The position numbers and the translations under genes were made by a program. A DNA stretch of 64,000 nucleotides from an uncultured Planctomycetia bacterium (lineage in GTDB: Bacteria > Planctomycetota > UBA8108), in assembly GCA_964615885.1 (NCBI GenBank), contig CAZTRG010000281.1, positions 66,535 through 130,534 of the forward strand, in the 5' to 3' direction. The first letter of the stretch is position 1. Every line of letters starts with the position of its first letter. Below the pieces are notes generated by a model. It was not told the DNA's origin. It worked only from the letters and a program-made list of their open reading frames with translations, and made no database searches. Below are positions 349 to 39,526 of the stretch, piece by piece.

Positions 349-4071
<3,723 letters not shown>

Positions 4072-4098
4072 AGCGCCAGGCGGACCGCCAGGGCCTTC

Positions 4099-5307
4099 TC
4101 AGCCCTCCTGCGCGGACTCAGCGAGGTGGACGACCCTGTAGAGGTCCCGGAGCTCGCCGACACCGGCAATCATGTCCTTGACCGTGCCCCCGGTCTGGAA
4201 GTTGATCAGCGCCTTGGACAGGTAGGGTGCGACATCGATGACCGTCAGGCGCTTGCGGAGAATCTCGCTCTCGGCCAGGCGCTGATCAAGCCCTCCCCGG
4301 CTGTTGGTACAGATCAGCTCATCAAGGGGAGATTCAGCCAGCCGCTCATCGAAGCGGCCGTGGCTTTCAGAATCGAAACCATAGAAATGCGTAACCAGGC
4401 CAATCACCTTCTTGGCGCCTTTTTCCTTGGCTGCCTTGGCAGCCTGGAACATGGTGGAGCCCGAGCGCATCATGTCATCCAGTATGACGCCAACATGCCC
4501 CTCGACCTCACCGACAAAGTCGAGAACCTGTTTCTCATCAACCGAGCCCCTCACCCGCAGCTGGTGAACCGCGGCCTGCCCGGCAACCCATTCCGGGCTC
4601 ATGTTCTTGAAAAGCTCTTCCCGCATCCGGACGCCGCCATCATCGGGCGAGATGAGGATAAACTTTTCCCCCTGCTCGATAAACCGATGGTTGAGATAGT
4701 CGCTGAAGAGCGGCTCCATTTTCAGATGGTCGAAGCTGTCGAAGGCAATCTCGATCTGCTCGGCATGCAGCGATGTGACGATGATGTGGTTCATGCCGCG
4801 GCGGATCAGGTCGTCGGCGACATCCCTCACCGTGATCGGCTCCCGGCGCGCATGGGTCTTGTCCTGCGCCTGGTACCAGAGGCAGGGAACCACGAAGTTG
4901 ATCTGGCGCACCTTGCAGGTACGCTTCAGCGTCGAGAGAATTTTGAGCGCATTGGCGAGTGACACATCAGGGTCTTCGCCGTAGCCGACGGTGGCGATGA
5001 CATAGACATGCTTGCCACGCAGGTTCTCCTTCACGACAGCCTTCTTCTCGCCATCCCCGAAGGTCAGGATCTCAACGGGGACAAGGGGTTTGCCCAGGAT
5101 CCTCGCCATGGAATTGGCCAGCTCATCATCCGGCCTGACAGAGACGATTGAGAAAGCATCCCTCGCCCTGCGGTCCATGTCCCTCTTCAGCTCATCGCGG
5201 ACCCGGTCCTCGATGAATTGCTCGAGCCAGGAACGGAACTGGGGATCACCCTGCAGTTTTTCGAATTCCATCTGATTCAACTCGCTGAGGCGAGCCACTC
5301 CCTTCAC
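4099..5307 (-). CDS. Ribose-phosphate pyrophosphokinase (PRPP synthetase) family protein with a ~50-aa N-terminal extension and a divergent active-site motif
   Basis: N-terminal Prs domain (VYVIATVGYG…SLHAEQIEIAFD) plus PRTase domain (ILDDMMRSGSTM). Convergent with metH. Confidence 0.7.
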   Translation of the reverse strand: MKGVARLSELNQMEFEKLQGDPQFRSWLEQFIEDRVRDELKRDMDRRARDAFSIVSVRPDDELANSMARILGKPLVPVEILTFGDGEKKAVVKENLRGKHVYVIATVGYGEDPDVSLANALKILSTLKRTCKVRQINFVVPCLWYQAQDKTHARREPITVRDVADDLIRRGMNHIIVTSLHAEQIEIAFDSFDHLKMEPLFSDYLNHRFIEQGEKFILISPDDGGVRMREELFKNMSPEWVAGQAAVHQLRVRGSVDEKQVLDFVGEVEGHVGVILDDMMRSGSTMFQAAKAAKEKGAKKVIGLVTHFYGFDSESHGRFDERLAESPLDELICTNSRGGLDQRLAESEILRKRLTVIDVAPYLSKALINFQTGGTVKDMIAGVGELRDLYRVVHLAESAQEG

Positions 5308-16417: not shown

Positions 16418-18604
16418 ATGGAAACCGGCAACACTCACGAACTCATTATCCAGGAAGAAAAGGGAGAGAGAACCTTTTCAATCCCTGAGGGAGAAACCCA
16501 CCTGGGGCGCGCTCGCAGCAATGGCTTGCAGCTGCGTGAAAAAAGCGTCTCCAGGGTCCATTGCCGCATTGAGCGCGATGGCGACAGGGTGGTGGTTTTT
16601 GATGCCGGAACCAGCAATGCAACCCGTCTGCGCCGGCACGGAAAAGAACGCACCAAGGGAGCCAATGGCAGAATCCTGCGAGACCAGGATGTTCTTTTCC
16701 TGGGGCGCCTGGAGATCATCTACCGCGGCTGCTCAGGACCCGGCGCAACCACCTCATCGGCTTCCCAGCAAGACGTTATTCCCACTGTACGGGGCGCCGT
16801 ACCTATTGAGAAACCACAGCCTGACCCTAATGTCCCCCAGGAGCCCTGGCAGCAGCAACCGGCTGCGCAGATGCCACCACCACAGGGCCAGCCCTACCCG
16901 GCACCGCAGAATCCAAACCAGCCTTACCCGGCTCAGCAGGATCCAAACCAGCCTTATCCGGCTCAGCAGGACCCGAACCAGCCCTACCCGGCTCAGCAGG
17001 ATCCGAACCAGCCCTACCCGGCTCAGCCTTATCCCGCTCAGCAAGGATACCCTCAGCAACAGCCCGGGCCATATCCGCCACAGTACGTCCCTCCTGCCCA
17101 GCAGCCGCCGCCGCAGCAGCAGCCGCCGCAGAATTATAACCCTCCGGCTCCCGGCGCAATGCAACCGCCGGTTACATTCAATCCAGCTCCTGCCGAACCG
17201 GAAAAACCCAAAAAGAAGAAGATCAAGAAGCGCATCAAGCCCAAGAAGAGCACCGCCAGGGTCAGCAAGGCCCCCAAGAGCGTTGCCCCGAAAAAATCAA
17301 GCGGGAGCCCCGCCGTGCCAATGGCCATCGGCGCTGTAACCCTGGTTGTACTGCTCGTCGTGGTATCCGGCGTCTTCAAGAGCATGAGGGACGACAACGA
17401 CCTCAAGCGCGTTGCCATGGAGGCTCAACAGGCAAAGGTCTCCAGCCGCCAGATGTCTGAAAGGGAAAAAGCCCTCCAGAACCAGCTGAGTGACACCAAC
17501 AGCAAGATTGAAAAATTGCAGCAGATGCTTGCCTCGCTGGAAAAATCCAACCAGGCCCTGCCGGACCGGCAACCGGCAGCCGGCGGCCAGGACACGGACC
17601 CAGCTGAGCCTGCCGATGAGCTCGCGGCTGCCCCGAGTGAGGAGGAACCGGTGCTCCCCTCCGCCGGGGGTGATGGCCAGGAGATCGCCGCAACAAGGGC
17701 TATGATTGCCGACCTGATCAAGAAACGTAACCAACTCCAGAAAGATTACGGCGGTATCTCCGGTGGGCTGGACACCTCAAAGATCGAGGCCTCCATCTCC
17801 AGGCGAACAGCGGTGATGAGCAATAGCGGCAACCGGATTCTCAACGTCGAGGACGATGAGGACACCCGTAAGACCGCTGTCGCCAAGCTTCCGCAGAAGG
17901 TGGAGTTATCGAAAAAAGATTATTCCGAGCTGGTCAAGCGGCTGAAAGAGACTGTTGGCAACTACGGATTGCCTGTCGCTTCGCCGGCCGACCTTGATCC
18001 GGATCTCACCGAGCTCCTGCGGGCCACCGGCGATGACGGAGCGAGGGGGCTGGTGGCGGTCTATCTCTACTCCAGTGAGCTTTACGCAAAGATGGAGAAG
18101 ACCACCTCCTTCCTGAAGAGGCGCATCGATGCCCTCATGAAAAATGCCTACAAGATCAATAAGGACAAGGCCCAATACAAAGCCGGTGGCGGGTCCTACG
18201 GTATGAGGCACAATCACTATCTCGAACAGCTCCAGCGCCTGCTGGAGTTGTCGGAGAAAAAGATCGAGATTAAAAAGAGTCAGAGGCGGCGCCTGGCTGC
18301 CTTCCAGCAGGCCCTTGGAGCCGGATTCCAGCGACTCACCTCGGTAGAATCTACAAAACACCTCACCAGTGTTTACTCCAAGAGCAAAGACACCGACATG
18401 AAACGCAAAATGGTGGGGTCTTTTGCAAAGGGCAATGCCCTGCAGGCGGTCCCGGCTTTGATAAAAAGCCTTTCATCTCCAGACCAGGAACTGAAAGGGC
18501 TTGTAAAATCAGCACTTGCGTCGATTACCGGGGTAAATCTCGGGGATAATAAGAAGATCTGGGAGGCCTGGTGGAAAGAAAATGGCGACCAGGCCGCAAA
18601 TTGA
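16418..18604 (+). CDS. FHA-domain membrane protein with a Pro/Gln-rich tandem-repeat linker, one TM helix, a coiled-coil and a HEAT-like C-terminus
   Basis: N-terminal FHA (THLGRARSNGLQLREKSVSRVHCRIE…VVFDAGTSNATRL). Repeats of (Q)QDPNQPYPA. TM segment AVPMAIGAVTLVVLLVVVSGVF. Coiled coil. Confidence 0.8.
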   Translation: METGNTHELIIQEEKGERTFSIPEGETHLGRARSNGLQLREKSVSRVHCRIERDGDRVVVFDAGTSNATRLRRHGKERTKGANGRILRDQDVLFLGRLEIIYRGCSGPGATTSSASQQDVIPTVRGAVPIEKPQPDPNVPQEPWQQQPAAQMPPPQGQPYPAPQNPNQPYPAQQDPNQPYPAQQDPNQPYPAQQDPNQPYPAQPYPAQQGYPQQQPGPYPPQYVPPAQQPPPQQQPPQNYNPPAPGAMQPPVTFNPAPAEPEKPKKKKIKKRIKPKKSTARVSKAPKSVAPKKSSGSPAVPMAIGAVTLVVLLVVVSGVFKSMRDDNDLKRVAMEAQQAKVSSRQMSEREKALQNQLSDTNSKIEKLQQMLASLEKSNQALPDRQPAAGGQDTDPAEPADELAAAPSEEEPVLPSAGGDGQEIAATRAMIADLIKKRNQLQKDYGGISGGLDTSKIEASISRRTAVMSNSGNRILNVEDDEDTRKTAVAKLPQKVELSKKDYSELVKRLKETVGNYGLPVASPADLDPDLTELLRATGDDGARGLVAVYLYSSELYAKMEKTTSFLKRRIDALMKNAYKINKDKAQYKAGGGSYGMRHNHYLEQLQRLLELSEKKIEIKKSQRRRLAAFQQALGAGFQRLTSVESTKHLTSVYSKSKDTDMKRKMVGSFAKGNALQAVPALIKSLSSPDQELKGLVKSALASITGVNLGDNKKIWEAWWKENGDQAAN
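16905..17040 (+). repeat. Four or more tandem copies of a 30-nt unit (gatccaaaccagccttacccggctcagcag) inside the FHA gene
   Basis: Directly visible near-identical 30-mers encoding QDPNQPYPAQ. Confidence 0.9.
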
Positions 18605-18728
18605 TATTTTCTGCTGTTTTTCTCGACACTTTAGGAATTAGGGGGTAAAGTGTTGGGGTATCCATCACTTTTTAGACCCTAACCCTTACCTGAACTTTTC
18701 AGGAACACCTTTGGAAAGGAGCTGTGAA

Positions 18729-19610
18729 ATGCTGAGAAAACTCACTGTAGCGGCCTTTGCGGTGCTGTTGACCACAGGAGCTCTCCAGGCGCAAAATGTC
18801 TCGTACAAGACATGGACCGGCGAGCAGGTCAAATCCAACGTCGACAAGATGATGTCGAAGATCAATTGGGGCACTGACCTCGATGAGCTCAAAAAGAAAG
18901 CCAAGGCACAGAAGAAAATGATCTTCTGGGTCGATATCGTCGGTGACCTCGACGGCGGATTGTGAAGTGCTGGCCACTCCCTGAGAGCCGGGACGCTCTC
19001 TAACGACAAGGTCATTGCTCAGATTAACGCCGCGTTTGTCTCCGGTTGGCAAAGCATCAAGGGCAAGAAAAGCTATGCTGGGGTTTCCAATACCCACATG
19101 CCCACCAATGCTGCCAAAAACATCAACACCTGTTCCGGTGGCCGTAACATTCAGATGTACTTCATGACGCCTGATGCTCGTGTCGTACACTGCCTGCCCG
19201 GCTTCTGGAGCGCCCAGGACTTCTACACCCAGGCTGGATTTGCCGTCAAGCTCGGTAACCTGGCCTACAACAAAAGCATCTCGAATGCTGACCGTAACGA
19301 GAAGTTCCTCGACATGCATCTGCAGAAAGCTCACGGCCACAACTACGGCCTCGTAGAAGGTGCCAAGCTGCAGGGCTTTGACGTGAAGTACGTCAAGAAC
19401 AACACTAATGACTTCACTCGCGGCAGCAAGGGCTTCGTCCAGGGCGTCAAGCTCGTCGACCAGGTCGTCCATGAACGCATGGCCGCCCGCCCCTTTGTTC
19501 CCTTCGAGAAGTTTGATGCCCGCGAGTTCACCAAGCTCGGCATCAAGCGTTACAAGTATGACTTCGGGCTTGCCGGCAAGTACGGCAGCAGCAAGTCGAA
19601 GGAGAAATAA
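18729..19610 (+). CDS. Candidate selenoprotein: secreted thioredoxin-fold (Thioredoxin_7/DUF255-like) protein with in-frame UGA (Sec) at 18963-18965
   Basis: AAGGAG RBS 8 nt before the ATG at 18729 and a signal peptide. The frame is open across the TGA (…FWVDIVGDLDGGL-U-SAGHSLRAGTLSNDKVIAQINAAFV…). The TGA sits where the first Cys of a Trx CxxC would be. A strong terminator follows the gene end at 19610. Confidence 0.55.
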
Positions 19611-19636
19611 TTCTCCGACTTCTAACCGAACGTCAA

Positions 19637-19676
19637 AGAGAGGCGGAGCTTTCGAGCTTCGCCTCTCTTTTTTTAT
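19637..19676. terminator. Rho-independent (bidirectional) terminator between convergent genes
   Basis: 13-bp stem agagaggcggagc / gcttcgcctctct with a tttcga loop, followed by tttttt. A-rich on the other side for the convergent SDR gene. Confidence 0.8.
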
Positions 19677-19695
19677 GCGCACTGCAAAGCTGCAG

Positions 19696-20466
19696 TCAGT
19701 GGGCCGTCCACCCACCGTCAACAAAGAGGGTGGCACCCGTCACATAGCTTGACGCTGCGCTGGCCAGGAAAATGGCTGCCCCCTGGATCTCGCCCATATC
19801 CCCCCACCGAGCCATCGGCACCTCTCCGAGAATAAAACGCTCGGTGTCAGGCTGGCCCACGATTGGCTCGTTCATCGGCGTGAGGAACGGCCCGGGGCAG
19901 ATCGCGTTAGCGGTGATCCCCTCCGAAGCCCACTCAAGAGCCAGCACTCGGGTCATCTGCACCACCGCTCCCTTGCTCGAAGCATAGGGGGTGCGCCCTG
20001 GAACCCCCACCACCCCCAGCGTGCTGCCCATGTTGATGACGCGCCCATAACCACCGGCCCTCATATGGGGTATCACTGCGCGCGAACAGAGCCAGGGTCC
20101 GCGAACATTGACGCTCATGACCTGCTCGAACTCTTCCAGGGACAAATCCTCAATCGGATTGCGGATGTTGATACCGGCATTGTTGATAAGAATATCAAGC
20201 CGCCCCAGTTTCGACATTGCCGAATCGATCAGGGCATCGACCTCCTCCGGATCCGTTACGTCACAACGGACACCGAGGGTCTTTCTGCCGCTCGACTCCC
20301 CCAGCAGAGCGGCCTCGTGTTCAGCCTCCTCGCCGTTTCGACTGCAGATAACAATGTCGGCGCCGGCAGATGCAAGCCCCTCCGCCATGCTGCGGCCGAG
20401 TCCCTTGGTGCCCCCTGTAACAAGTGCTACCTTCCCATCGAGCCGAAAGAGATCGATTCCAGACAT
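19696..20466 (-). CDS. SDR family oxidoreductase (FabG/KduD-like)
   Basis: TGGTKGLG Rossmann motif, NNAG, catalytic YxxxK (YASSKGAV). Confidence 0.9.
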   Translation of the reverse strand: MSGIDLFRLDGKVALVTGGTKGLGRSMAEGLASAGADIVICSRNGEEAEHEAALLGESSGRKTLGVRCDVTDPEEVDALIDSAMSKLGRLDILINNAGINIRNPIEDLSLEEFEQVMSVNVRGPWLCSRAVIPHMRAGGYGRVINMGSTLGVVGVPGRTPYASSKGAVVQMTRVLALEWASEGITANAICPGPFLTPMNEPIVGQPDTERFILGEVPMARWGDMGEIQGAAIFLASAASSYVTGATLFVDGGWTAH

Positions 20467-31869: not shown

Positions 31870-32970
31870 ATGAAGATCCGGGCAGCTGTTGTCAAAAAGA
31901 CTGGGCAACCCTTCGAGATTGAAACTCTCGACCTCGCACCTCCACGCGAAAAAGAGGTGCTGGTCAGGATTCGCGCCGCGGGAATCTGCCATAGTGACTG
32001 GAACATACGTACAGGGGAAACCGAGCATCCCCTGCCTGCGGCTGCAGGTCACGAGGGCGCAGGAATCGTCGAATCCATCGGAGAGGGAGTCACCTCGCTC
32101 AGGGCGGGCGATCACGTCGCGCTGAGCTGGGCACCGGGGTGTGGCTCCTGTTTTTACTGCTCCAGCAGACGGCCGGCCCTCTGCGAGACCTGGAAAGAGG
32201 CGCTCTGGGCAGGAACCCTCCTTGATGGAACGACCCGCCTGTCACTGAATGGCAAAGCGGTCTACCACTATTGCGCCCTGGCCTGTTTCGCCGAGTACGC
32301 GGTCGTTCCGGAGGTCTGCTGCGTCCCTGTCGACAAGAAGGTCCCGCTGAAGGTCGCGGCCTTGATCGGTTGTGCGGTCACAACCGGTCTCGGCGCATCG
32401 ATGAATACCGTCCAGGTCGAGGAGGGGGCAGCCGTGGTGATCTACGGGATGGGAGGGGTCGGACTGAGTATACTGGCCGGGGCACAGCTGGCCGGAGCAG
32501 ACCCCCTCATCTGCGTCGACCTGTGGGAAGAGAAGCTCGAGCTGGCGCGCTCCCTTGGCGCTACTGCCGCTTTCAAGGCAGATGCCGGGGTACAAGAGAA
32601 CATCCTGGCGGCAACCGCCCAGCGTGGAGCCGACTATGTTTTCGAGGCGACCGGCTCCACGGAAGTCCAGGAGTCGGCCTTCGATGCTGTTCGGCCCGGG
32701 GGAAAGCTCATCCTGGTAGGCCTCTCGGCCACAGGAACAAAAACGAATTTCCCCGGATCGGTCATTACCCGGCAGGAAAAAACCATTCTAGGCTCCTACT
32801 ACGGCTCCTGCGACCCCCACCGGGACTTTCCTCTCTACTCCACAATGTACCTTCGCGGAGAGCTCGACCTCGACAGGCTGGTATCAAAAATCTACCGCCT
32901 CGAAGAGATCAATACCGCCTACAGCGACATGCTTGAAGGAAAGACCGCACGCGGCATCATCGCCTTCTGA
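31870..32970 (+). CDS. Zinc-dependent alcohol dehydrogenase (MDR family, class III ADH-like)
   Basis: GICHSDWN, GHEGAGIVESIG, structural zinc Cys cluster CGSCFYCSSRRPALC, Rossmann motif GMGGVG. Confidence 0.9.
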   Translation: MKIRAAVVKKTGQPFEIETLDLAPPREKEVLVRIRAAGICHSDWNIRTGETEHPLPAAAGHEGAGIVESIGEGVTSLRAGDHVALSWAPGCGSCFYCSSRRPALCETWKEALWAGTLLDGTTRLSLNGKAVYHYCALACFAEYAVVPEVCCVPVDKKVPLKVAALIGCAVTTGLGASMNTVQVEEGAAVVIYGMGGVGLSILAGAQLAGADPLICVDLWEEKLELARSLGATAAFKADAGVQENILAATAQRGADYVFEATGSTEVQESAFDAVRPGGKLILVGLSATGTKTNFPGSVITRQEKTILGSYYGSCDPHRDFPLYSTMYLRGELDLDRLVSKIYRLEEINTAYSDMLEGKTARGIIAF

Positions 32971-33178
32971 GAGGCTCTGGAGCCCTCTCTCTGCCACAAA
33001 AAGCCATCCTGCCGCCATCGGTGCTCCCTGGCCCCTTTTCTTCGCCAAAAACCATTCAATACAACCCGGTAAATTTATTGACGTGTTTCATACAAGTGAC
33101 TTAGCATCTTGTAGTTACGCGAAGATCTATCATTCGGTTGGTTCTTTTTTATTCACGACAGACACCTGGAGATTCCAG

Positions 33179-34480
33179 ATGAAGATCCATCAAGCAAGCC
33201 GGCGTGATTTCCTCACAGTGGGCGCCATCGGCGGCCTCGGCCTGACCCTGGACCAGTATTTCCGCATCAAGTCGGCCAACGCCGAGCAGAAGTTTTACGA
33301 GAGCAAAGAAGGCCCCGCCAAGTCGGTCATTAACATTTTCATGCCCGGCGGTATGGCTCACCAGGACACCTTCGACCCCAAGCCCTATGCCCCCCTGGCC
33401 TACCGCGGCGAGCTGGGCAATATCGGCACCAAGCTACCCGGCGTGCGCTACGGCGAGGTCATGAAGAAAACGGCCCAGGTGGCCGACAAGATCACCGTTG
33501 TCCGCTCTATGAGCCACGGCGAGGCGGCCCACGAACGCGGCACGCACAATATGTTCACCGGCTACCGCCCGCGCCCGGCGCTCGTATTCCCCAGCATGGG
33601 AAGCATCGTTTCGCACGAGTTCGGCCCGCGCAAGAGCCTGCCGCCCTATGTCTGTATACCGGGCCAGCCCAACACCTTTGCAGGATCCGGCTACCTGAGC
33701 TCCTCCTATGCTCCCTTCAGCCTCGGCAGCGACCCGGCCAGCGGCAACTTCAAGGTCCGCGATCTGAATCTTGCCGGCGGCATCAAGTCCGAACGCTTCA
33801 ACCGGCGCCGCTCGATCCTCGAGACGGTCAATGCGCACTTCAAGGAAACCGAAAAATCCGATGGCCTCGAGGCCATGGACACTTTCTACCAGCGGGCCTA
33901 TGGCCTCATCAGCTCCAAGGAGGCCAAGGAGGCCTTCAACATCAACGCTGAGCCGGCCAAGCTCCGTGACGAATACGGCCGCAACGCTGCCGGGCAGAGG
34001 CTCCTGCTGGCCAGGAGACTGGTCGAGGCCGGAGTGCGCTTCGTCACCCTGACCTACGGCGGCTGGGACATGCACAACAACATTCGAAACTCCATGAGAG
34101 GCCAGATGCCTCCCTTCGACCAGGCCTTCGCCAGGTTGATCATGGACCTTGAGACCCGCGGGCTGCTCGACTCGACCCTCGTCGTGGTCACAACGGAATT
34201 CGGCCGTACTCCAAAGATTAATGGAAACGCAGGAAGGGATCACTGGCCCAAGGTGTTCAGCATCGTCCTGGCCGGTGGTGGAATCAAGAAAGGGTTCGTC
34301 TACGGCAAGTCCGATGCGACTGCCACTGAGCCCGAGGAAGACGCCCTGACGGTGGAGGACTGGGCAACCACGGTCTACCACCAGCTGGGCATCGTCGCTG
34401 ACAAAGAGCTCATGGCCCCCGGTGACCGGCCGATCGAGATCGTTGACGGCGGCAAGGTTCGCAAAGAGCTCCTCGCCTGA
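33179..34480 (+). CDS. DUF1501 domain protein (sulfatase-like, TAT signal)
   Basis: Twin-arginine-type start MKIHQASRRDFLTVGAIGG. Conserved TEFGRTP and GRDHW blocks typical of DUF1501. The ORF track starts upstream at 32933. Confidence 0.85.
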   Translation: MKIHQASRRDFLTVGAIGGLGLTLDQYFRIKSANAEQKFYESKEGPAKSVINIFMPGGMAHQDTFDPKPYAPLAYRGELGNIGTKLPGVRYGEVMKKTAQVADKITVVRSMSHGEAAHERGTHNMFTGYRPRPALVFPSMGSIVSHEFGPRKSLPPYVCIPGQPNTFAGSGYLSSSYAPFSLGSDPASGNFKVRDLNLAGGIKSERFNRRRSILETVNAHFKETEKSDGLEAMDTFYQRAYGLISSKEAKEAFNINAEPAKLRDEYGRNAAGQRLLLARRLVEAGVRFVTLTYGGWDMHNNIRNSMRGQMPPFDQAFARLIMDLETRGLLDSTLVVVTTEFGRTPKINGNAGRDHWPKVFSIVLAGGGIKKGFVYGKSDATATEPEEDALTVEDWATTVYHQLGIVADKELMAPGDRPIEIVDGGKVRKELLA

Positions 34481-34570
34481 GGACAGGCCGGAGGTAAATC
34501 CCTCCCCTGCTCCACGAAGGAGATCTTATGTACAGGGAGCCGCCTTATCGGCCCCCTGGCCAGGGAAAGA

Positions 34571-37069
34571 ATGAATCCAAGGTCAACAGGAAGTAATCCT
34601 ATGCCCCTACCCGGTAAAACAAGAACTGAACCAACCCGCCTGCTTTTGCTTTGCGCCGCCTGCCTGCTGCTGAGCGCTGGCATCCTCGAGGCCGCATCTC
34701 CATCGCTGGGCTCCATCATTCCCCGCGGAGGACAGCGTGGAACCGAGCTGGAGGTCAACTTCAACGGCGACCGGCTGGCTGATGTGAAGGAGATCCTCTT
34801 TTACTCCCCGGGCTTCAGCCTTGTTGAATTCAAGGTCACCAATCCCAAGCACGTCCTCGCCAGGATCAAGATCGCCGCTGACTGCCGCCTGGGCGTCCAT
34901 GCCATGCGCTTGCGTACCGCCACCGGGATCTCCGACATGAAGACCTTTTTTGTCGGCTCCCTGGCTGAGCTTGCCGAGAAGGAGCCCAACAGCGACTTTG
35001 CCGCACCACAGAAGATAGCTCTCAACTCGACCGTGAGCGGGAGCGTTCAGAACGAAGATGTCGACTACTACATTTTCGAGGTCAAGAAAGGGCAGCGTAT
35101 CTCCGCCGAGATCGAGGCGATGCGACTGGGCAACACGATCTTCGATCCCTATATCGCCATCATGAACTCCGGCCGCTTTGAGATCGCCTCCTCAGATGAC
35201 TCCGCCCTGCTGCGGCAGGATTCCACCTGCCAGGTGATCGCCCCTGAAGATGGAAACTACTACGTCCAGGTCCGCGAGAGCTCTTACGGGGGAAACGGCA
35301 ACTGCCGCTACCGGCTGCATGTCGGAACCTTTCCCCGCCCCAGGGGACTGCTTCCCGCAGGCGCGAAGGCCGGCTCCGAAGTAGAGGTCCAATACCTTGG
35401 CGATGCAGGTGGAGACCGCAAACAGAAGGTGACCCTGCCCCCCGCTGCCCGCGAGGACTTCGGGCTGCATCTCGAGGATGAAGGCGGAGTGTCGCCATCG
35501 GTGAATGTTTTCCGACTCAGCGAGTACGACAACACGATGGAGGTCGAGCCCAACAACAACCACGCCAAGGCCACCGTCGCCAGCGCCCCGGGCGCCTTCA
35601 ACGGGATCATCTCAGAACCTGGAGACGTCGACTGTTTCAGATTCAAGGCCAACAAGGGCCAGGTTTTCGAGGTGGAGCTCTACGGCCGCAGGATCCGCTC
35701 TCCGCTGGACTCCGTGATCAACATAGCTCACTTTTCCGGCAAGGGGATCACCGGGAACGACGATTCGCGCGGCCCGGACAGCTACTTTCGCTTCACCGCC
35801 CCGGAGACCAAGGAATACGTCCTGACCGTACGAGACCACCTGGGAAAAGGCGGGCCGGATTACGTCTACCGCTTCGAGCTGACCCCGGTCAAGCCGGCCC
35901 TCAGCCTCACGATCCCACGGGTAGCAAGATATTCCCAGGAGCGGCAATCGATCTCGGTGCCCCGGGGGAACCGCTACACTGCCCTGGTTTCCGTCAGCCG
36001 GCAGAACTTCGGCGGAGACCTTGCCTTCAGCTGCGCCGATCTTCCCGCGGGAATCTCCCTCCAGGGAGAAAACATGCCTGCAAACCTGACCACCATCCCT
36101 GTACTCTTCGAGGCGGCCGCCGATGCGCCCCTGTCGGGAAAGATCTGTGATGTTCGTGCACAGCATGCCGATGAGAAGAAAAACATCAGCGGCGGCTTCC
36201 GCATCGGTATCGACCTCCTGGTCGGCAACCCCGGGCAGTCGGTCTACCTGAGACACACCCTCAAGGGACTGGCCGTCGCCGTTACCGAAGAGGCTCCCTT
36301 CAAGCTGCAGATTGTCGAGCCGAAGGTGCCCATTGTTCGCAACGGGTCCATGGCTCTCAAGATTGTCGCCGAACGCAAGGAAGGCTTTACCGCACCTATC
36401 GGTCTCCAGATGGTCTTCAATCCCCCGGGGATCACCTCACAGCGCGGCGTCAATATCCCCAAGGACAAGAACGAGGCCTTCATCAGCCTGAATGCAAACG
36501 GCGGCGCCCAGGTGCGCGCCTGGAAGATTGCCGTCAACGGCTCCAGCGGCGGGATCTGGGCCAGCACTCAGCTCGCCACCCTCCGCGTAGCAGAGCCTTA
36601 CATCGATCTGGCCGCAGAGAAAACCTCCGTCGAACAGGGCAAGGAAACCGAGATCTACTGCAAGATCAACCAGCGAACGAAATTTGAAGGCAAGGCGAAG
36701 GTGAGCCTCTTCGGGCTGCCGCATAACGTCAAGGCCGCGGGAATGGAAATTGACGCCGACACCAAGGAGGTCACCTTCAAGGTCACAGTCGCCAAGGACA
36801 GTCCCGCGGGAAAGCACAAGACCATTGCCTGCCGTGTTGAAATTGTTGAGAGCGGCGAGTCCATCGTTCATTCCACCGGCGGCACCGAGCTGCGCATCGA
36901 CAAGCCCCTGCCGCCGCCGAAACCCAAGAAAAAACCACCGCCGAAGGTGGTCAAGAAGGTCGAGAAGCCAAAACCTCCACCGCCGCCAAAGGCGCCGCCC
37001 AAGAAGCGCCTGACCCGGCTGGAGAAACTACGCCTGCAATTCAAGAAGAACAAAGAAGAGGGGTCCTGA
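34571..37069 (+). CDS. Secreted protein with two pre-peptidase C-terminal (PPC)-like domains and a Lys/Pro-rich C-terminal tail
   Basis: Signal peptide. Two DVD(Y/C)xxF…G(Q)xxxxE…xxxDxVxx PPC-like beta-sandwich segments. C-terminal PPPKPKKKPPPKVVKKVEKPKPPPPPK. Confidence 0.7.
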   Translation: MNPRSTGSNPMPLPGKTRTEPTRLLLLCAACLLLSAGILEAASPSLGSIIPRGGQRGTELEVNFNGDRLADVKEILFYSPGFSLVEFKVTNPKHVLARIKIAADCRLGVHAMRLRTATGISDMKTFFVGSLAELAEKEPNSDFAAPQKIALNSTVSGSVQNEDVDYYIFEVKKGQRISAEIEAMRLGNTIFDPYIAIMNSGRFEIASSDDSALLRQDSTCQVIAPEDGNYYVQVRESSYGGNGNCRYRLHVGTFPRPRGLLPAGAKAGSEVEVQYLGDAGGDRKQKVTLPPAAREDFGLHLEDEGGVSPSVNVFRLSEYDNTMEVEPNNNHAKATVASAPGAFNGIISEPGDVDCFRFKANKGQVFEVELYGRRIRSPLDSVINIAHFSGKGITGNDDSRGPDSYFRFTAPETKEYVLTVRDHLGKGGPDYVYRFELTPVKPALSLTIPRVARYSQERQSISVPRGNRYTALVSVSRQNFGGDLAFSCADLPAGISLQGENMPANLTTIPVLFEAAADAPLSGKICDVRAQHADEKKNISGGFRIGIDLLVGNPGQSVYLRHTLKGLAVAVTEEAPFKLQIVEPKVPIVRNGSMALKIVAERKEGFTAPIGLQMVFNPPGITSQRGVNIPKDKNEAFISLNANGGAQVRAWKIAVNGSSGGIWASTQLATLRVAEPYIDLAAEKTSVEQGKETEIYCKINQRTKFEGKAKVSLFGLPHNVKAAGMEIDADTKEVTFKVTVAKDSPAGKHKTIACRVEIVESGESIVHSTGGTELRIDKPLPPPKPKKKPPPKVVKKVEKPKPPPPPKAPPKKRLTRLEKLRLQFKKNKEEGS

Positions 37070-37084
37070 GGGCCTGCTGACATC

Positions 37085-39526
37085 GTGAAAATAAAAAGAC
37101 ACCTCCCATTCCTGCCTGTCCTGGCCTTAATAACAGGAATTCTCTGCCCCGGTGATTCCGCCGGCGGGGCCGACCTGGTGAAGATCACTGCCTACCCCGG
37201 GGATGTCCAGCTCAGCACCCAGCGGGACCGGCAGTCGGTGATTGTCCAGGCTCTCTATTCCAATGGCCTGACCAGGGACATTACCTCCGAGGCGAAATAC
37301 ACCCTTGCCGACCCGGCCCTGGCAAAACTCGAAGGCGGTGCCGTGCTTCCGCTTAAAGATGGCACCACCGAGCTCCGGATCGAGCTGGGAGGTAAATCCA
37401 TCGCCCTGCCCCTTACGGTCAAGGATGCTGCCATCGACCGGCCCATCAGCTTCAAGCTCGATGTCATGCCCGTCTTCATGAAGGCAGGCTGCAACACGGG
37501 GAGCTGCCATGGAGCCGCCCGCGGCAAAGACGGCTTCAGGCTGTCACTTTTCGGTTTCGACCCCGATGGCGACTACCATCGCCTGACACGGGAGCTCAAC
37601 GGCCGGCGGCTCAACCTGGCGCTCATACATGACAGCCTCCTCCTTGAGAAAGGCGCCGGAAGTGTCAGCCATACCGGTGGAAAACGGTTTGAAAAGGACT
37701 CCGAGCTCTACGGGACGCTGGTGCGGTGGCTGGAGGCCAGGGCCCCCCGCGACGCCGCCAACATTCCCCATCCCACCGGCATCGAGTTCTATCCTCCTAA
37801 TGCGGTTCTCAACGGCAGCGGGGCAACCCAGAAGCTCACGGTGCGAGCCACCTATTCCGACGGGAGCACCCGGGATGTAACCAGCCTCGCCTACTTCCTC
37901 TCGAACAATGACACCTCGGCAAAGGTCTCCCAGGAAGGCGTCGTCAGCGCAGGGAGCCGCGGTGAAGCATTTATCATGGCGCGCTTCGACACCTTTACCG
38001 TCGGCAGCCACTTCATCGTGCTGCCGAAAAATCTCGAATTCCAGTTTCCCGCGGTTGAGGAAAACAACTACGTCGACACCCTGATCAACGAGAAGCTGAA
38101 AAAACTCCGGGTGGCCCCATCAGAGCTCTGCTCTGACGAGGTGTTCCTGAGGCGGGCCTATCTCGACATCATCGGCCTCCTGCCCACCACCGAGGAATAC
38201 ACGCGCTTCACCTCGAGTGAGGAAAAAGACAAGCGCTCAAAGCTGGTCGATGAGCTGCTCGGGCGTAAAGAATTCGTGGAGCTCTGGGTGATGAAGTGGG
38301 CCGAGCTTCTCCAGATCAGGTCCTCCCAGCAGGTGAGCTACAAGGCCATGCTGCTCTACTACAACTGGCTGCAGGACAAGATCGCCAACAATGTGCCGAT
38401 GGATAAGATGGTGAGCGAGCTCCTCGGCGCCAGCGGCGGAACCTTCAAAAATCCTGCCACCAACTACTACCAGAATGAGACCAACACCCTGAAGGTCACC
38501 GAGAACGTGGCCCAGGTGTTCATGGGCATGCGGATCCAGTGCGCCCAGTGTCATAACCACCCCTTCGATAAATGGACACAAAATGACTACTATGGCTTCG
38601 CCTCGTTCTTCTCCCAGATTGGCAGGAAACGCGCCGAAGACCCCAGGGAAACCATCGTCTTCAACTCCCGCAGCGGCGAGGTGCGCAACCCTGTCGGCAA
38701 CCGGGTCATGAAGCCCAAGTTCCTCGGTGGCGAGGCCCCCGACCTGAAGGGTAAAGACCGGCGGGTGGCGATGGCCGAGTGGCTGGTCTCGAGCGAGAAC
38801 CCCTTCTTTGCCACCAACCTTGCCAACATGGTCTGGGCACATTTCTTCGGCAAGGGAATCATTGACGAGGTCGATGATGTGCGGGTCAGCAACCCTCCGG
38901 CCAACGCCGAGCTCCTCAGCGCCCTCGGACAGCGCTTCACGGAATACAAGTATGACTTCAAGCGCCTGGTTCGAGACATCTGTACCTCGAGGACCTACCA
39001 GCTTGCCACCCAGACCAACGAGTCAAACGAATCGGACACTCGCAACTTCTCACATGCATCGCTTCGCAGGATCCGGTCTGAGATCCTCCTGGATTGCATC
39101 ACACAGGTCACCGCTACGAGCAACAAGTTCCGCGGCCTCCCCAAGGGGTCCCGTGCCGTGCAGATTGCCGATGGCTCCACCAGCAACTATTTCCTGACGG
39201 CCTTCGGCCGCGCCAAGCGCGAGAGCGTCTGCTCCTGCGAGGTCCAGATGGAACCCAACCTCTCCCAGGCCCTTCACCTGCTCAATGGCAACACTGTTGA
39301 GGAGAAGATCAGGAGCGGCGGCCTCATCAAGGCCTTGCTCGATGCGAAAAAGACCCCCGAAGAGATTATCGAAGAGCTCTACATCCGCTCCTTCTCTCGC
39401 CGGCCGGTCGAAAAAGAGGTGACCGGCCTGAAGGCCATTCTTGCCTCCACTCCGAGCCCCAAAGAATTTCTCGACGACCTCTTCTGGTCACTGCTCAACT
39501 CCCGCGAATTCCTCTTCAACCACTGA
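37085..39526 (+). CDS. PSCyt2 (DUF1549) + PSD1 (DUF1553) planctomycete-type protein with N-terminal Ig-like (BIG2) repeats
   Basis: GTG start. GCNTGSCHGAARGKDGFRLSLFG (PSCyt2), a C-terminal DUF1553-like region, and two BIG2-like N-terminal repeats. Confidence 0.85.
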   Translation: MKIKRHLPFLPVLALITGILCPGDSAGGADLVKITAYPGDVQLSTQRDRQSVIVQALYSNGLTRDITSEAKYTLADPALAKLEGGAVLPLKDGTTELRIELGGKSIALPLTVKDAAIDRPISFKLDVMPVFMKAGCNTGSCHGAARGKDGFRLSLFGFDPDGDYHRLTRELNGRRLNLALIHDSLLLEKGAGSVSHTGGKRFEKDSELYGTLVRWLEARAPRDAANIPHPTGIEFYPPNAVLNGSGATQKLTVRATYSDGSTRDVTSLAYFLSNNDTSAKVSQEGVVSAGSRGEAFIMARFDTFTVGSHFIVLPKNLEFQFPAVEENNYVDTLINEKLKKLRVAPSELCSDEVFLRRAYLDIIGLLPTTEEYTRFTSSEEKDKRSKLVDELLGRKEFVELWVMKWAELLQIRSSQQVSYKAMLLYYNWLQDKIANNVPMDKMVSELLGASGGTFKNPATNYYQNETNTLKVTENVAQVFMGMRIQCAQCHNHPFDKWTQNDYYGFASFFSQIGRKRAEDPRETIVFNSRSGEVRNPVGNRVMKPKFLGGEAPDLKGKDRRVAMAEWLVSSENPFFATNLANMVWAHFFGKGIIDEVDDVRVSNPPANAELLSALGQRFTEYKYDFKRLVRDICTSRTYQLATQTNESNESDTRNFSHASLRRIRSEILLDCITQVTATSNKFRGLPKGSRAVQIADGSTSNYFLTAFGRAKRESVCSCEVQMEPNLSQALHLLNGNTVEEKIRSGGLIKALLDAKKTPEEIIEELYIRSFSRRPVEKEVTGLKAILASTPSPKEFLDDLFWSLLNSREFLFNH

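Follow-up and report, generated by a model that had tools for sequence, protein, structure and literature searches.

A predicted selenocysteine codon in an exported thioredoxin-like protein family of Planctomycetota and Obscuribacterales

One frame with a single internal UGA

Does the TGA triplet at positions 18963-18965 (+ strand) of the 64,000-nucleotide stretch of planctomycete DNA analysed here (the window) terminate a gene, or is it decoded as an amino acid? An earlier note on this DNA had described two ORFs that share a frame and are parted by this single TGA. Re-reading the sequence confirmed the observation, with the translation as quoted there: one frame of 294 codons extends from ATG 18729 to TAA 19608-19610, and TGA 18963-18965 is its sole internal stop. 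Taken as a complete coding sequence (18729-19610, + strand), the frame would specify 293 residues including selenocysteine (Sec) at position 79, followed by TAA, an assignment based on the single TGA in one frame, on the orthologues and on pN/pS. The start is preceded by a Shine-Dalgarno-like element, GGAAAGGAG (18714-18722, +), which was read from the sequence and ends 7 nt before the ATG. A predicted Sec-type signal peptide, MLRKLTVAAFAVLLTTGALQA (18729-18791, +), was recognised by eye from its basic n-region, hydrophobic core and small-residue C-region, its cleavage site being approximate, and a comparable N-terminus is present in nearly all full-length orthologues. At the opposite end, an intrinsic terminator consisting of a 16-bp stem and a T-run (19635-19680, +) is located 25 nt past the TAA. 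This strong terminator at the end of the locus follows the TAA and not the TGA, and no terminator-like site was found after the latter, which ends at 18965.

In a window of 60% GC, however, such an arrangement carries little weight by itself: more than 100 times, a single TGA is flanked on both sides by 60 or more open codons of its frame, so that the pattern alone is not beyond chance and gains significance only by comparison with related loci, which makes it decisive. The same screen was considered as a source of further TGA-split genes in the window, and its output was too large to be interpreted; three consecutive same-frame ORFs at 32933-39526 were rejected as a TGA-split gene, as they belong to unrelated families. 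According to a rough map of longest ORFs, UGA terminates most ORFs in the window. Hence, it acts as an ordinary stop elsewhere, and any recoding at 18963 would be site-specific.

The comparison comprised related loci from Planctomycetota, Obscuribacterales and others, which share 30-91% identity with the window. A TGA occupies the aligned column in all 79 loci that cover the position, and their full-length orthologues contain exactly one internal stop, this TGA, with the protein conserved on both sides of it. The UGA is thereby established as conserved, and homologues do not uniformly end at the site. Carriers of the gene include Ca. Uabimicrobium amorphum (NZ_AP019860.1, orthologue L015), a 7.87-Mb contig (CBDCXR010000004.1), an Obscuribacterales chromosome (OZ245871.1) and JADJWK010000001.1.

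More distant full-length homologues disclose which residue takes the place of the UGA product. Cysteine is found at the Sec column in P0022, P0025-P0030, P0066, P0068, P0169, P0179, P0182, P0194 and P0210, and serine in five further sequences (P0031-33, P0035 and P0079), which answers the proposed question of whether homologues carry Cys or Sec at this position. Two public translations, P0070 and P0075, show tryptophan there, most likely as the product of translation with code 4. Sec and Cys paralogues occur together in one assembly and are arranged in tandem in L090-L092. The Sec forms feature the motif U-S-A-[G/A/N] and the Cys forms C-S-[TA]-L, the second Cys being absent in both. As thioredoxin folds carry their nucleophilic Cys at this column (see below), the presence of Cys in homologues constitutes the signature of Sec/Cys exchange. 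Judged from these comparisons, TGA 18963 almost certainly stands for selenocysteine, which the secreted, thioredoxin-like product would carry in the motif G-D-L-D-G-G-L-U-S-A-G-H. The more comprehensive reading, according to which 18729-19610 encodes one exported 293-residue protein with Sec79 inserted via a SECIS element, a thioredoxin fold and, by inference, mono-selenol chemistry, is held at a probability of roughly nine in ten.

The hairpin downstream of the UGA and the identity of the inserted residue

Folding of the region downstream of the UGA had likewise been suggested in the earlier note, and a SECIS-like hairpin was indeed encountered there. The hairpin, GAGAGC-CGGGAC-GCUCUC (18983-19000, +), was assigned on the basis of pairing, codon entropy and minimum free energy (MFE); it comprises a 6-bp stem and a 6-nt loop, and spans 19-36 nt past the UGA. 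The bacterial SECIS consensus demands a loop of 3-9 nt, a stem of 4-16 bp, a spacing of 16-37 nt, an MFE of -7.5 kcal/mol or lower, and a G in the first two loop positions, where G followed by G or U is allowed (PMC13188914). With the loop CGGGAC, a stem of 6 bp, a spacing of 23 nt from the UGA to the beginning of the loop and an MFE of -9.3 kcal/mol, the hairpin agrees with all of these rules, the G at loop position 2 and the U or G behind it satisfying the loop requirement.

Across 77 distinct sequences, 98.7% of the stem cells are paired. A compensatory change from A-U to C-G in L008 and L016 is the only compensated pair within the main family, where covariation is thin owing to the nearly invariant stem. 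Codon usage is more informative: relative codon entropy amounts to 0.00-0.46 at the hairpin codons L85, R86, A87, V88 and L90 and to 0.7-1.0 at nearly all other conserved residues, the lowest values outside the hairpin being 0.45-0.57 (G76, S80, F66 and one C-terminal Asp column). The loss of synonymous variation is confined to the codons of the hairpin, and the RNA structure is under selection. Moreover, a distant Sec subfamily possesses the stem GCGGGG/CCCUGC, in which three or four pairs (depending on the register) have changed their identity, while the loop CGUGA is retained at the same distance from the UGA. The hairpin is missing in the Cys/Ser paralogues of this subfamily and is thus kept in the UGA forms only. 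General detection methods did not register the element: Rfam returned neither a SECIS nor any other match, whether the whole window was searched at the gathering threshold or positions 18900-19100 at E<=10, and folding of 86 nt around the TGA yielded an insignificant z-score of -0.15, since the signal resides in a short local hairpin that is visible only by comparison.

A stem-loop inside the coding sequence that recruits SelB is the standard mechanism of bacterial selenocysteine insertion. By its anatomy, the locus would operate in the same manner, the stem-loop at 18983-19000 recruiting SelB together with Sec-tRNA(Sec) while the ribosome is positioned at UGA 18963-18965, which would then be decoded as Sec.

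Hairpins downstream of a stop codon can also stimulate read-through in other systems, and the structure described here might accordingly serve the insertion of Trp, Cys, Arg or Gly, or a switch between termination and read-through that gives rise to two products. Such recoding to a residue other than Sec is also in line with the tryptophan in P0070 and P0075, and with the outcome of the search for the Sec machinery: selA, selB and selD were not found by tblastn with the E. coli proteins in the window or in 80 related loci, nor was a tRNA-Sec found by ARAGORN in the window or in 60 loci, all of which represent a small fraction of each genome. On the other hand, the site coincides with the nucleophilic Cys of the fold and is occupied by Cys in homologues, the hairpin, which accompanies UGA forms only, has the loop content and the spacing of the SelB-type consensus, and a general reassignment of UGA is contradicted by its use as terminator of most ORFs in the window. 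In addition, selenocysteine use has been documented for the phylum, in which some Planctomycetes carry selA, selB, selC and selD (PMC4807772). Non-Sec recoding is hence considered improbable.

It is about as hard to credit that a genuine selenoprotein family is represented in the window lineage by a decaying copy, whose SelB binding is weakened by a U-to-G change at 18991 with poor expression or loss as the consequence. The suspicion arises from the loop itself, which reads CGUGWC in relatives and CGGGAC in the window: among 80 sequences the window alone displays G at this otherwise invariant position (18991, +; T in all 79 related loci), and by the same change the conserved Val88 (GTG) is turned into glycine (GGG). 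Yet 6/6 independent contigs from marine metagenomes, which match the window gene at 99.7-100% identity and keep its frame intact, share G18991, so that the variant has become fixed in no fewer than six separate marine assemblies. Furthermore, pN/pS against relatives still amounts to about 0.15, the stability of the hairpin is unchanged at -9.3 kcal/mol, and the altered loop remains within the consensus, which permits either G or U at this position (PMC13188914). The G at 18991 is regarded as a lineage-specific variant of the SECIS loop.

One gene or two

Conventional annotation treats the locus differently. Public gene callers annotate two products, either of 78 aa and 170 aa or with a C-terminal part of about 205 aa starting with 'MTLS', and TGA-separated open frames are, as outlined above, common in this GC-rich window. 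Accordingly, TGA 18963 could be a true stop that delimits a 78-residue peptide from an independently initiated C-terminal protein, starting at ATG 19098 or at the GTG used in relatives, or the gene could be dead. This interpretation is very improbable in view of several lines of evidence. First, the invariance of the internal TGA (79/79 loci) is at odds with the terminal stops of the same genes, which are mixed (TGA 29, TAA 25, TAG 23): in 45 clusters formed at <70% identity TGA is the terminal stop in only 24%, and the probability of drawing 45 internal TGAs at terminal-stop usage is approximately 3e-28. Second, pN/pS of the window gene against L001, L003, L006 and L007 is about 0.15 (0.10-0.26) in residues 1-78, 80-123 and 124-293 alike. 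The segment between TGA 18963 and ATG 19098, the first ATG 3' of it and 44 codons away, is thus constrained by purifying selection as strongly as the remainder of the gene. The arguments that both ORFs form one gene, that the 44 stop-free codons would otherwise be left as non-coding and that the second ORF lacks a ribosome-binding site are sustained by these data, the last one by the absence of a Shine-Dalgarno-like sequence before ATG 19098. Third, a stop at 18963 would cut the thioredoxin fold between beta1 and alpha1, while the distant homologues are uninterrupted and place Cys at the site. Finally, the GTG often chosen by gene callers as start of the C-terminal fragment is situated inside the SECIS loop and is absent from the window lineage, where it reads GGG. 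The remaining proposal starts from a 345-codon antisense ORF, 18699-19736 (- strand), which exceeds every other uninterrupted ORF of the locus in length, and takes it for the actual gene, with the plus-strand frames as its shadow. This is ruled out in practice: only 17/73 loci keep the antisense frame open across 80% or more of the gene (median 43%), the homologues in the databases all follow the plus-strand frame, and the substitutions are patterned as plus-strand codons would have it. The antisense ORF, which also overlaps a convergent SDR gene (19696-20466), is itself the shadow.

Predicted product, gene neighbourhood and comparison with known systems

The product of the gene read through at UGA 18963 would consist of the signal peptide, a thioredoxin-fold domain (18822-19268, +; approximately residues 32-180) and a family-specific helical C-terminal domain (19284-19568, +; approximately residues 186-280). 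The structure model used for the assignment is that of a Cys homologue with 28% identity, and not of the window protein. In this model, a beta-alpha-beta plus beta-beta-alpha core bears the nucleophile after beta1 at the N-terminus of alpha1, and together with a fold search this identifies the modelled fold as thioredoxin-like, of the DsbD-gamma/Thioredoxin_7/DsbH/AGR type. The model places Cys130 at the Sec column, where it caps helix 131-140 at its N-terminus, as anticipated by the earlier placement of the UGA on the nucleophilic Cys of a Thioredoxin_7/DUF255-type fold. The elements of the domain follow in the order beta1 (IFWVDI), loop, Sec79, alpha1, a further alpha helix, beta2, a long conserved loop, beta3, beta4 and alpha3. 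Glycine replaces the second Cys of the CxxC motif in the window protein (U-S-A-G), as had been pointed out before, and relatives carry Ala or Asn at this resolving position. Two other cysteines are conserved in Sec forms only: Cys155 (H-C-L-P-G) in 69/73 sequences and Cys105 (F-V-C-G-W) in 58/73, the latter being Ser105 in the window protein. The C-terminal domain, for which neither sequence nor fold searches returned a match, is marked by the invariants Q215, F217, D218 and H248-E249-R250 and by RPF and FD motifs.

From this architecture we infer a mono-selenol oxidoreductase that acts outside the cytoplasm. Its selenolate would attack a disulfide, sulfenate or peroxide-type substrate to form a selenenylsulfide or selenenic intermediate, which may be resolved by an external thiol, by Cys155 or, in most relatives, by Cys105.

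Directly upstream and on the same strand lies the gene of an FHA-domain membrane protein of 728 aa (16418-18604, +; ending in TGA), which is likely an operon partner. It comprises an N-terminal FHA domain (Pfam PF00498, E 3.4e-9), a Pro/Gln-rich repeat, a predicted transmembrane segment and a coiled-coil/HEAT-like C-terminus. This neighbour, already noticed in the first reading of the window, has orthologues in the same position and orientation in 28 loci, window included, all of them of Planctomycetota type; its stop overlaps the selenoprotein start in L021-L033, and gene calls on L083-L086 agree with an upstream FHA gene. The Obscuribacterales loci lack this neighbour. In Planctomycetota, the selenoprotein gene is probably co-transcribed with the FHA transmembrane protein, and this points to a connection with envelope signalling. 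As a speculative and rather doubtful extension, the exported, Sec-dominated mono-selenol enzyme might be the redox-sensing or relay partner of the FHA protein in Planctomycetota, where a redox signal in the envelope, for instance peroxide or disulfide stress, would be captured as selenenylsulfide and relayed through the membrane to FHA/phospho-threonine signalling; recruitment in Obscuribacterales would then be FHA-independent. If true, this would imply an unrecognised Sec-decoding trait across non-photosynthetic cyanobacterial relatives.

The family comprises 1688 clusters at 50% identity (E<=1e-3), fragments included, and the best 150 of these are mostly fragments that end at, or start just past, the Sec column. 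It is predominantly Sec-containing and widespread in Planctomycetota and in Obscuribacterales, the non-photosynthetic relatives of cyanobacteria. In the public records examined, its members are split into fragments and are unnamed or labelled 'hypothetical protein'. No curated model covers the window protein, which had not been recognised as a described family in the earlier reading either: neither Pfam nor NCBIfam release 20 gave a match at E<=10, the best NCBIfam value among 21 members being 0.013. Nor does the 2026 catalogue of 119 prokaryotic selenoprotein families contain an entry that combines a thioredoxin-like fold with UxxG (PMC13188914, Table 1). GOS_A, GOS_B and GOS_C as well as the deep-Sep families DG, DW and DF were discarded because their motif, their ratio of Cys to Sec or their model does not fit. 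No relevant paper was retrieved from full texts, whether by the motif strings or by selenocysteine combined with Melainabacteria, Obscuribacter or Uabimicrobium. For the planctomycete P1, a 'hypothetical' selenoprotein candidate has been reported (IMG 2643311185/2643311186; PMC4807772, Table S9). Measured against the curated models, the 2026 catalogue and the GOS and deep-Sep families, the family is concluded to be a genuine, new selenoprotein family, absent from the selenoprotein catalogues checked.

A large and mostly Sec-containing family would join the prokaryotic selenoproteome, and its recognition would mend many gene models in marine Planctomycetota and Obscuribacterales, besides flagging the lineages of both groups that carry the gene as selenocysteine users. 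The minimal 18-nt SECIS hairpin, with codons frozen by RNA constraint, provides a clean natural example. For enzymology, the single nucleophile in U-x-x-G, on a scaffold of the DsbD-gamma/AGR type with its own C-terminal domain, offers a tractable target; Ca. Uabimicrobium amorphum is in culture.

Among the closest known systems are the exported proteins of the DsbD gamma-domain/Thioredoxin_7/Thioredox_DsbH (DUF255) type (PDB 3f9u, 1vrs_D, 6dnu, 2ju5, 7tkv, 3ira). The new family differs from these by U-x-x-G in place of C-x-x-C and hence by the lack of an in-motif resolving Cys, by a longer loop between beta1 and the nucleophile (G-D-L-D-G-G-L), by a conserved insertion of about 30 residues between beta2 and beta3, and by the additional helical domain of about 100-130 residues, which has no known relative. 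Sub-threshold Pfam matches (whole-protein E-values) were obtained to Thioredoxin_7 (PF13899) in 4/21 members (best 0.0029) and to Thioredox_DsbH (PF03190) in 3/21 (best 0.0061); being below the gathering threshold and devoid of a CxxC dithiol, the family does not belong to either.

The catalogued thioredoxin-fold selenoproteins, namely Trx7/PDZ (NF041199), thiol:disulfide interchange UxxC, DsbA-like, DsbG-like, SaoT, VPGUxxT and HUIPC (PMC13188914, Table 1), resemble the new family in being bacterial, in placing Sec within a redox motif and in containing a SECIS hairpin inside the coding sequence, and several of them are exported. Their motifs are CxxU, UxxC and UxxT instead of UxxG, and the new family is distinguished from them by the predominance of Sec with few Cys forms and by its own C-terminal domain. 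NF041199 is touched by one of 21 members at E 0.081, and no match passes the threshold.

AGR2/AGR3 and ERp18/ERp19 (PDB 3ph9, 9i3u, 1sen, 2k8v) are also listed among the closest systems, although these eukaryotic ER proteins employ Cys and not Sec and share neither detectable sequence homology nor the C-terminal domain with the new family, for which client trapping of the AGR2/AGR3 type is not indicated. A profile search of PDB sequences gave nothing meaningful. Finally, GPx-like and 1-Cys Prx-like selenoproteins (UxxT, TxxU, UxxS) likewise combine a thioredoxin scaffold with a lone Sec nucleophile in polar surroundings. In the new family, invariant Asn140, Gln142 and Trp160 would lie near the predicted active-site loops; in contrast to the GPx tetrad, these Asn, Gln and Trp residues belong to other structural elements, and neither sequence nor best-fold matches connect the new family to GPx/Prx.

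The reading frame and its internal TGA

The gene of the candidate selenoprotein opens with an ATG at 18729, 7 nt after the end of GGAAAGGAG, and its frame of 294 codons extends to a TAA at 19608-19610, with the TGA at 18963-18965 (Sec79) as the sole internal stop. The next ATG past the TGA, at 19098, lies 44 codons downstream and is not preceded by a ribosome-binding site; in both respects the sequence matches the description in the earlier note. A strong intrinsic terminator (16-bp stem and T-run) is located at 19635-19680, 3' of the TAA, and no terminator-like site follows the TGA. In a rough longest-ORF map of the window, most ORFs, the FHA gene (16418-18604, + strand) among them, terminate in UGA, so that the codon is not reassigned there. 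A screen of the window (60% GC) returned more than 100 frames with a single TGA and at least 60 open codons on each side; hence, the raw pattern is not unusual and the case rests on comparative evidence.

The longest ORF at the locus is an antisense frame of 345 codons (18699-19736, - strand), which spans the entire selenoprotein gene, overlaps a convergent SDR gene and could mislead gene callers; as no more than 17 of 73 loci keep it open across 80% or more of the gene, it was dismissed as a shadow. Recoding was likewise rejected for three large consecutive same-frame ORFs, 32933-34480, 34571-37069 and 37085-39526, each parted from the next by one TGA as the only stop, since their Pfam families (DUF1501; PPC; PSCyt2/PSD1) are unrelated and the arrangement is thus a coincidence. 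DUF1501, PSCyt1 and PSCyt2/PSD1 genes elsewhere in the window fit a planctomycete origin. ARAGORN placed a tRNA-Leu(GAG) at 1364-1449 (- strand), and an Rfam scan of the whole window at gathering thresholds gave zero matches, tRNA included.

The initial homology search yielded 24 proteins, nearly all of ~205-235 aa with an N-terminus (MTLS...) just past the TGA position, and one full-length protein, P0022, with Cys aligned to the TGA. A locus scan with one genome per species gave 80 loci, which belong to Planctomycetota (Ca. Uabimicrobium amorphum among them), to many Obscuribacterales/Melainabacteria and to a few otherwise-labelled MAGs. At protein identities of ~30% to 91%, the aligned codon is TGA in all 79 loci covering the position, in the context G-x-[LI]-x-G-x-[LT]-U-S-A-[GAN]-[HNQ]-S-[LM]-R-A-V-[TS]-L-S; every one of the genes is interrupted by exactly one stop, and a signal-peptide-like N-terminus is present in nearly all. 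At their 3' ends these genes use TGA (29), TAA (25) or TAG (23), and with terminal TGA in only 24% of 45 clusters (<70% identity), 45 internal TGAs have P ~3e-28. Moreover, in comparison with four relatives of 85-91% identity, pN/pS is 0.10-0.26 and alike in residues 1-78, 80-123 and 124-293, the supposedly non-coding spacer (80-123) thus equalling both flanking segments. The proposal that the two ORFs constitute one gene is sustained by both results, and the comparisons argue firmly for recoding of the UGA in the window gene. Obscuribacterales-type copies also occur in MAGs labelled Proteobacteria, Actinobacteria, Bryobacterales, Oculatellaceae, Drouetiella or Planktothrix (L043, L045, L051, L054, L058, L060, L074, L076, L079), possibly through binning or taxonomy errors or horizontal transfer.

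Among full-length homologues from a profile search, the TGA column holds Cys in P0022 and P0025-P0030 and Ser in P0031-33 and P0035; homologues with Cys at this position are what a selenoprotein reading anticipates. Among 1.84 billion cluster representatives searched exhaustively with a profile, 1688 match at E<=1e-3, and ~14 of the best 150 of these span the column, with Cys in P0030, P0066, P0068, P0169, P0179, P0182, P0194 and P0210, Ser in P0079, 'W' in P0070 and P0075, and loss of the motif in three. The most likely source of the 'W' is translation of TGA with code 4 or 25, in which case P0070 and P0075 are rare full-length reads of Sec forms. Within the same best 150, ~70 begin just past the column, at position 131 or 134 of the profile, and ~30 stop just ahead of it, at 122-124. 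Since most of these matches end before or start after the column, the family is mostly Sec-containing and systematically split by gene callers. All public names found for its members read 'hypothetical protein'. Sec and Cys paralogues coexist on different contigs of one assembly (GCA_038321385.1; L089, L096) and are tandem neighbours on one strand in L090-L092 (TGA at 3146, Cys gene at 4001-5128).

The SECIS-type hairpin

Directly 3' of the TGA, L-R-A-V-[T/S]-L is encoded by codons that are nearly frozen at the nucleotide level: Ala is GCC in 71/71 sequences, Val is GTG in 72/72, Leu is CTC in 67/72 and Arg is AGA/AGG, with CGA limited to two compensated sequences. Relative codon entropy at the hairpin codons is 0.46, 0.39, 0.00, 0.00 and 0.14, compared with 0.7-1.0 at nearly all other conserved residues, the lowest values outside the hairpin (0.45-0.57) being those of G76, S80, F66 and one C-terminal Asp column. 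The predicted hairpin at 18983-19000 (+ strand; family form GAGAGC-CGUGWC-GCUCUC) has 98.7% of cells paired over 77 distinct sequences. Its loop of 6 nt, stem of 6 bp and UGA-to-loop distance of 23 nt lie within the published bSECIS constraints (3-9 nt, 4-16 bp and 16-37 nt, respectively; PMC13188914), and loop position 2 is G, followed by U or G, as in the consensus G[G|U] (PMC13188914). The MFE is -9.3 kcal/mol in the window and <=-7.5 in 73 of 80 sequences; Rfam holds no model matching the hairpin. The structure expected downstream of the TGA was thus located, and its conservation strongly supports a SECIS-type element in the window gene.

With a stem that hardly varies, the main family shows limited covariation; in L008 and L016, an A-U to C-G double change occurs at the cost of a Ser-to-Ala replacement. 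What amounts, by sequence comparison, to an independent test is provided by a distant subfamily, whose Sec forms (L089, L093, L094 and the second gene in L090) have GCGGGG-CGUGA-CCCUGC at equal distance from the UGA, with a different stem sequence and an unchanged loop. The Cys/Ser paralogues of this subfamily (L090 at 4388, L095, L096) use other codons and lack the hairpin.

At 18991 (loop position 3), the window alone among 80 sequences has G, giving GGG (Gly) where the T/U of the other 79 gives GTG (Val88). A sequencing error is ruled out by six independent marine metagenome contigs (99.7-100% identical) with the same G, which is therefore a fixed lineage variant and remains within the consensus G[G|U] (PMC13188914). 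In the related loci (L001-L080; alignment A2 columns 28-30), the invariant GTG nine codons past the TGA sits in the SECIS loop and is the false start of the 'MTLS...' proteins P0001-P0019. Public callers start the C-terminal fragment there, and the RNA element thus makes a systematic false start codon.

Fold, active site and gene neighbourhood

The window protein has no match in Pfam or NCBIfam. Among 21 members, below-threshold matches comprise Thioredoxin_7 in four (best E 0.003), Thioredox_DsbH in three and DsbD in one, and one touches the Trx7/PDZ selenoprotein model, also below threshold. The structure was predicted for the Cys homologue P0028 in place of the window protein (37-sequence alignment), with mean pLDDT 89.4, pTM 0.80 and pLDDT >93 throughout the folded part. 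The model contains two helices, beta(116-121), a loop and helix 131-140 with Cys130 at its N-cap, followed by a helix, beta(155-160), a long ordered loop, beta(191-196), beta(201-207), helix(212-230) and a helical domain at 236-342. Fold matches are 3f9u (exported, cytochrome c biogenesis-related, DsbD-like; 12.9), 2lst (thioredoxin; 11.2), 7tkv (Thioredox_DsbH; 10.5), 3ph9 (AGR3; 10.0), 3ira (conserved protein domain of Methanosarcina mazei, which we take to be DUF255; 10.0), 1vrs_D (DsbD-gamma; 9.2) and 2ju5 (DsbH; 8.8), and Foldseek gives the same set. These cover the thioredoxin part only; fold searches and a PDB sequence-profile search found no relative of the C-terminal domain. As fold and sub-threshold domain matches agree, the by-eye alignment to Thioredoxin_7/DUF255-type domains was right in kind, and the model firmly supports a thioredoxin fold with Sec79 at the nucleophilic CxxC position and Gly at the second, as originally assigned.

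Cys155 is conserved in 69/73 Sec forms and Cys105 in 58/73 (Ser in the window protein), and both are absent from Cys/Ser forms. Asn140, Gln142, Trp160 and His248-Glu249-Arg250, all invariant, may belong to the active site.

The FHA gene of the window encodes a membrane protein of 728 aa with an FHA domain (PF00498). All 28 loci of the upstream-neighbour cluster (window counted; all Planctomycetota-type) have an orthologue directly 5' of the selenoprotein gene and in the same orientation, which extends the arrangement first noticed in the window; its stop and the selenoprotein start overlap in L021-L033. No such neighbour is present in Obscuribacterales loci. The FHA gene contains a tandem repeat (16888-17042; 4.7 copies of a 30-nt unit) encoding the Pro/Gln-rich decapeptide QDPNQPYPAQ between FHA domain and membrane segment. 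In L095, an AhpC/TSA-Redoxin (TlpA-like) gene (2169-2876) directly upstream of the gene of the Ser-form member P0035 (3001-4149, same strand) hints at a thiol-redox context. The distant Cys homologues P0179, P0182 and P0194 (motif C-[LM]-G-[GS]-[HN]-L-M-R) have a HEAT-like repeat N-terminal to, and fused with, the thioredoxin-like domain. This HEAT-like segment resembles, by eye, the C-terminal region of the window FHA-domain protein, and the fusion may be a link between the two operon partners.

Proposed mechanism and relation to known selenoproteins

Following established bacterial Sec biology, SelB with Sec-tRNA(Sec) would bind the hairpin and bring Sec to the UGA. No selA, selB, selD or tRNA-Sec was seen within the 64-kb window or the flanks of related loci; some Planctomycetes have the Sec trait (PMC4807772). 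Judging from fold and motif, the product would be an exported mono-selenol oxidoreductase. Since the motif contains no resolving Cys, selenenylsulfide or selenenic intermediates would be expected, which a partner thiol, Cys155 or Cys105 might resolve. The nearest mechanistic analogue is presumably the AGR2-type proteins, which are single-Cys and among the fold matches.

Of the 119 prokaryotic selenoprotein families in a 2026 review (PMC13188914), almost all have NCBIfam/Pfam models; these models give no match, and the combination of a thioredoxin-like fold with UxxG is absent among the 119. Neither the GOS families (GOS_A, GOS_B, GOS_C) nor the deep-Sep families (DG, DW, DF) fit, and literature searches with motif strings found nothing. 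Because no catalogued family, model or motif search matches, the impression that this is not a described family holds, and a new family of thioredoxin-fold selenoproteins decoded by bSECIS is well supported computationally, an unnamed 'hypothetical' selenoprotein candidate in planctomycete P1 (PMC4807772) lying outside the comparison. Thioredoxin-fold bSECIS selenoproteins are already known as a kind; the new family is hence not conceptually surprising to specialists, yet worth reporting.
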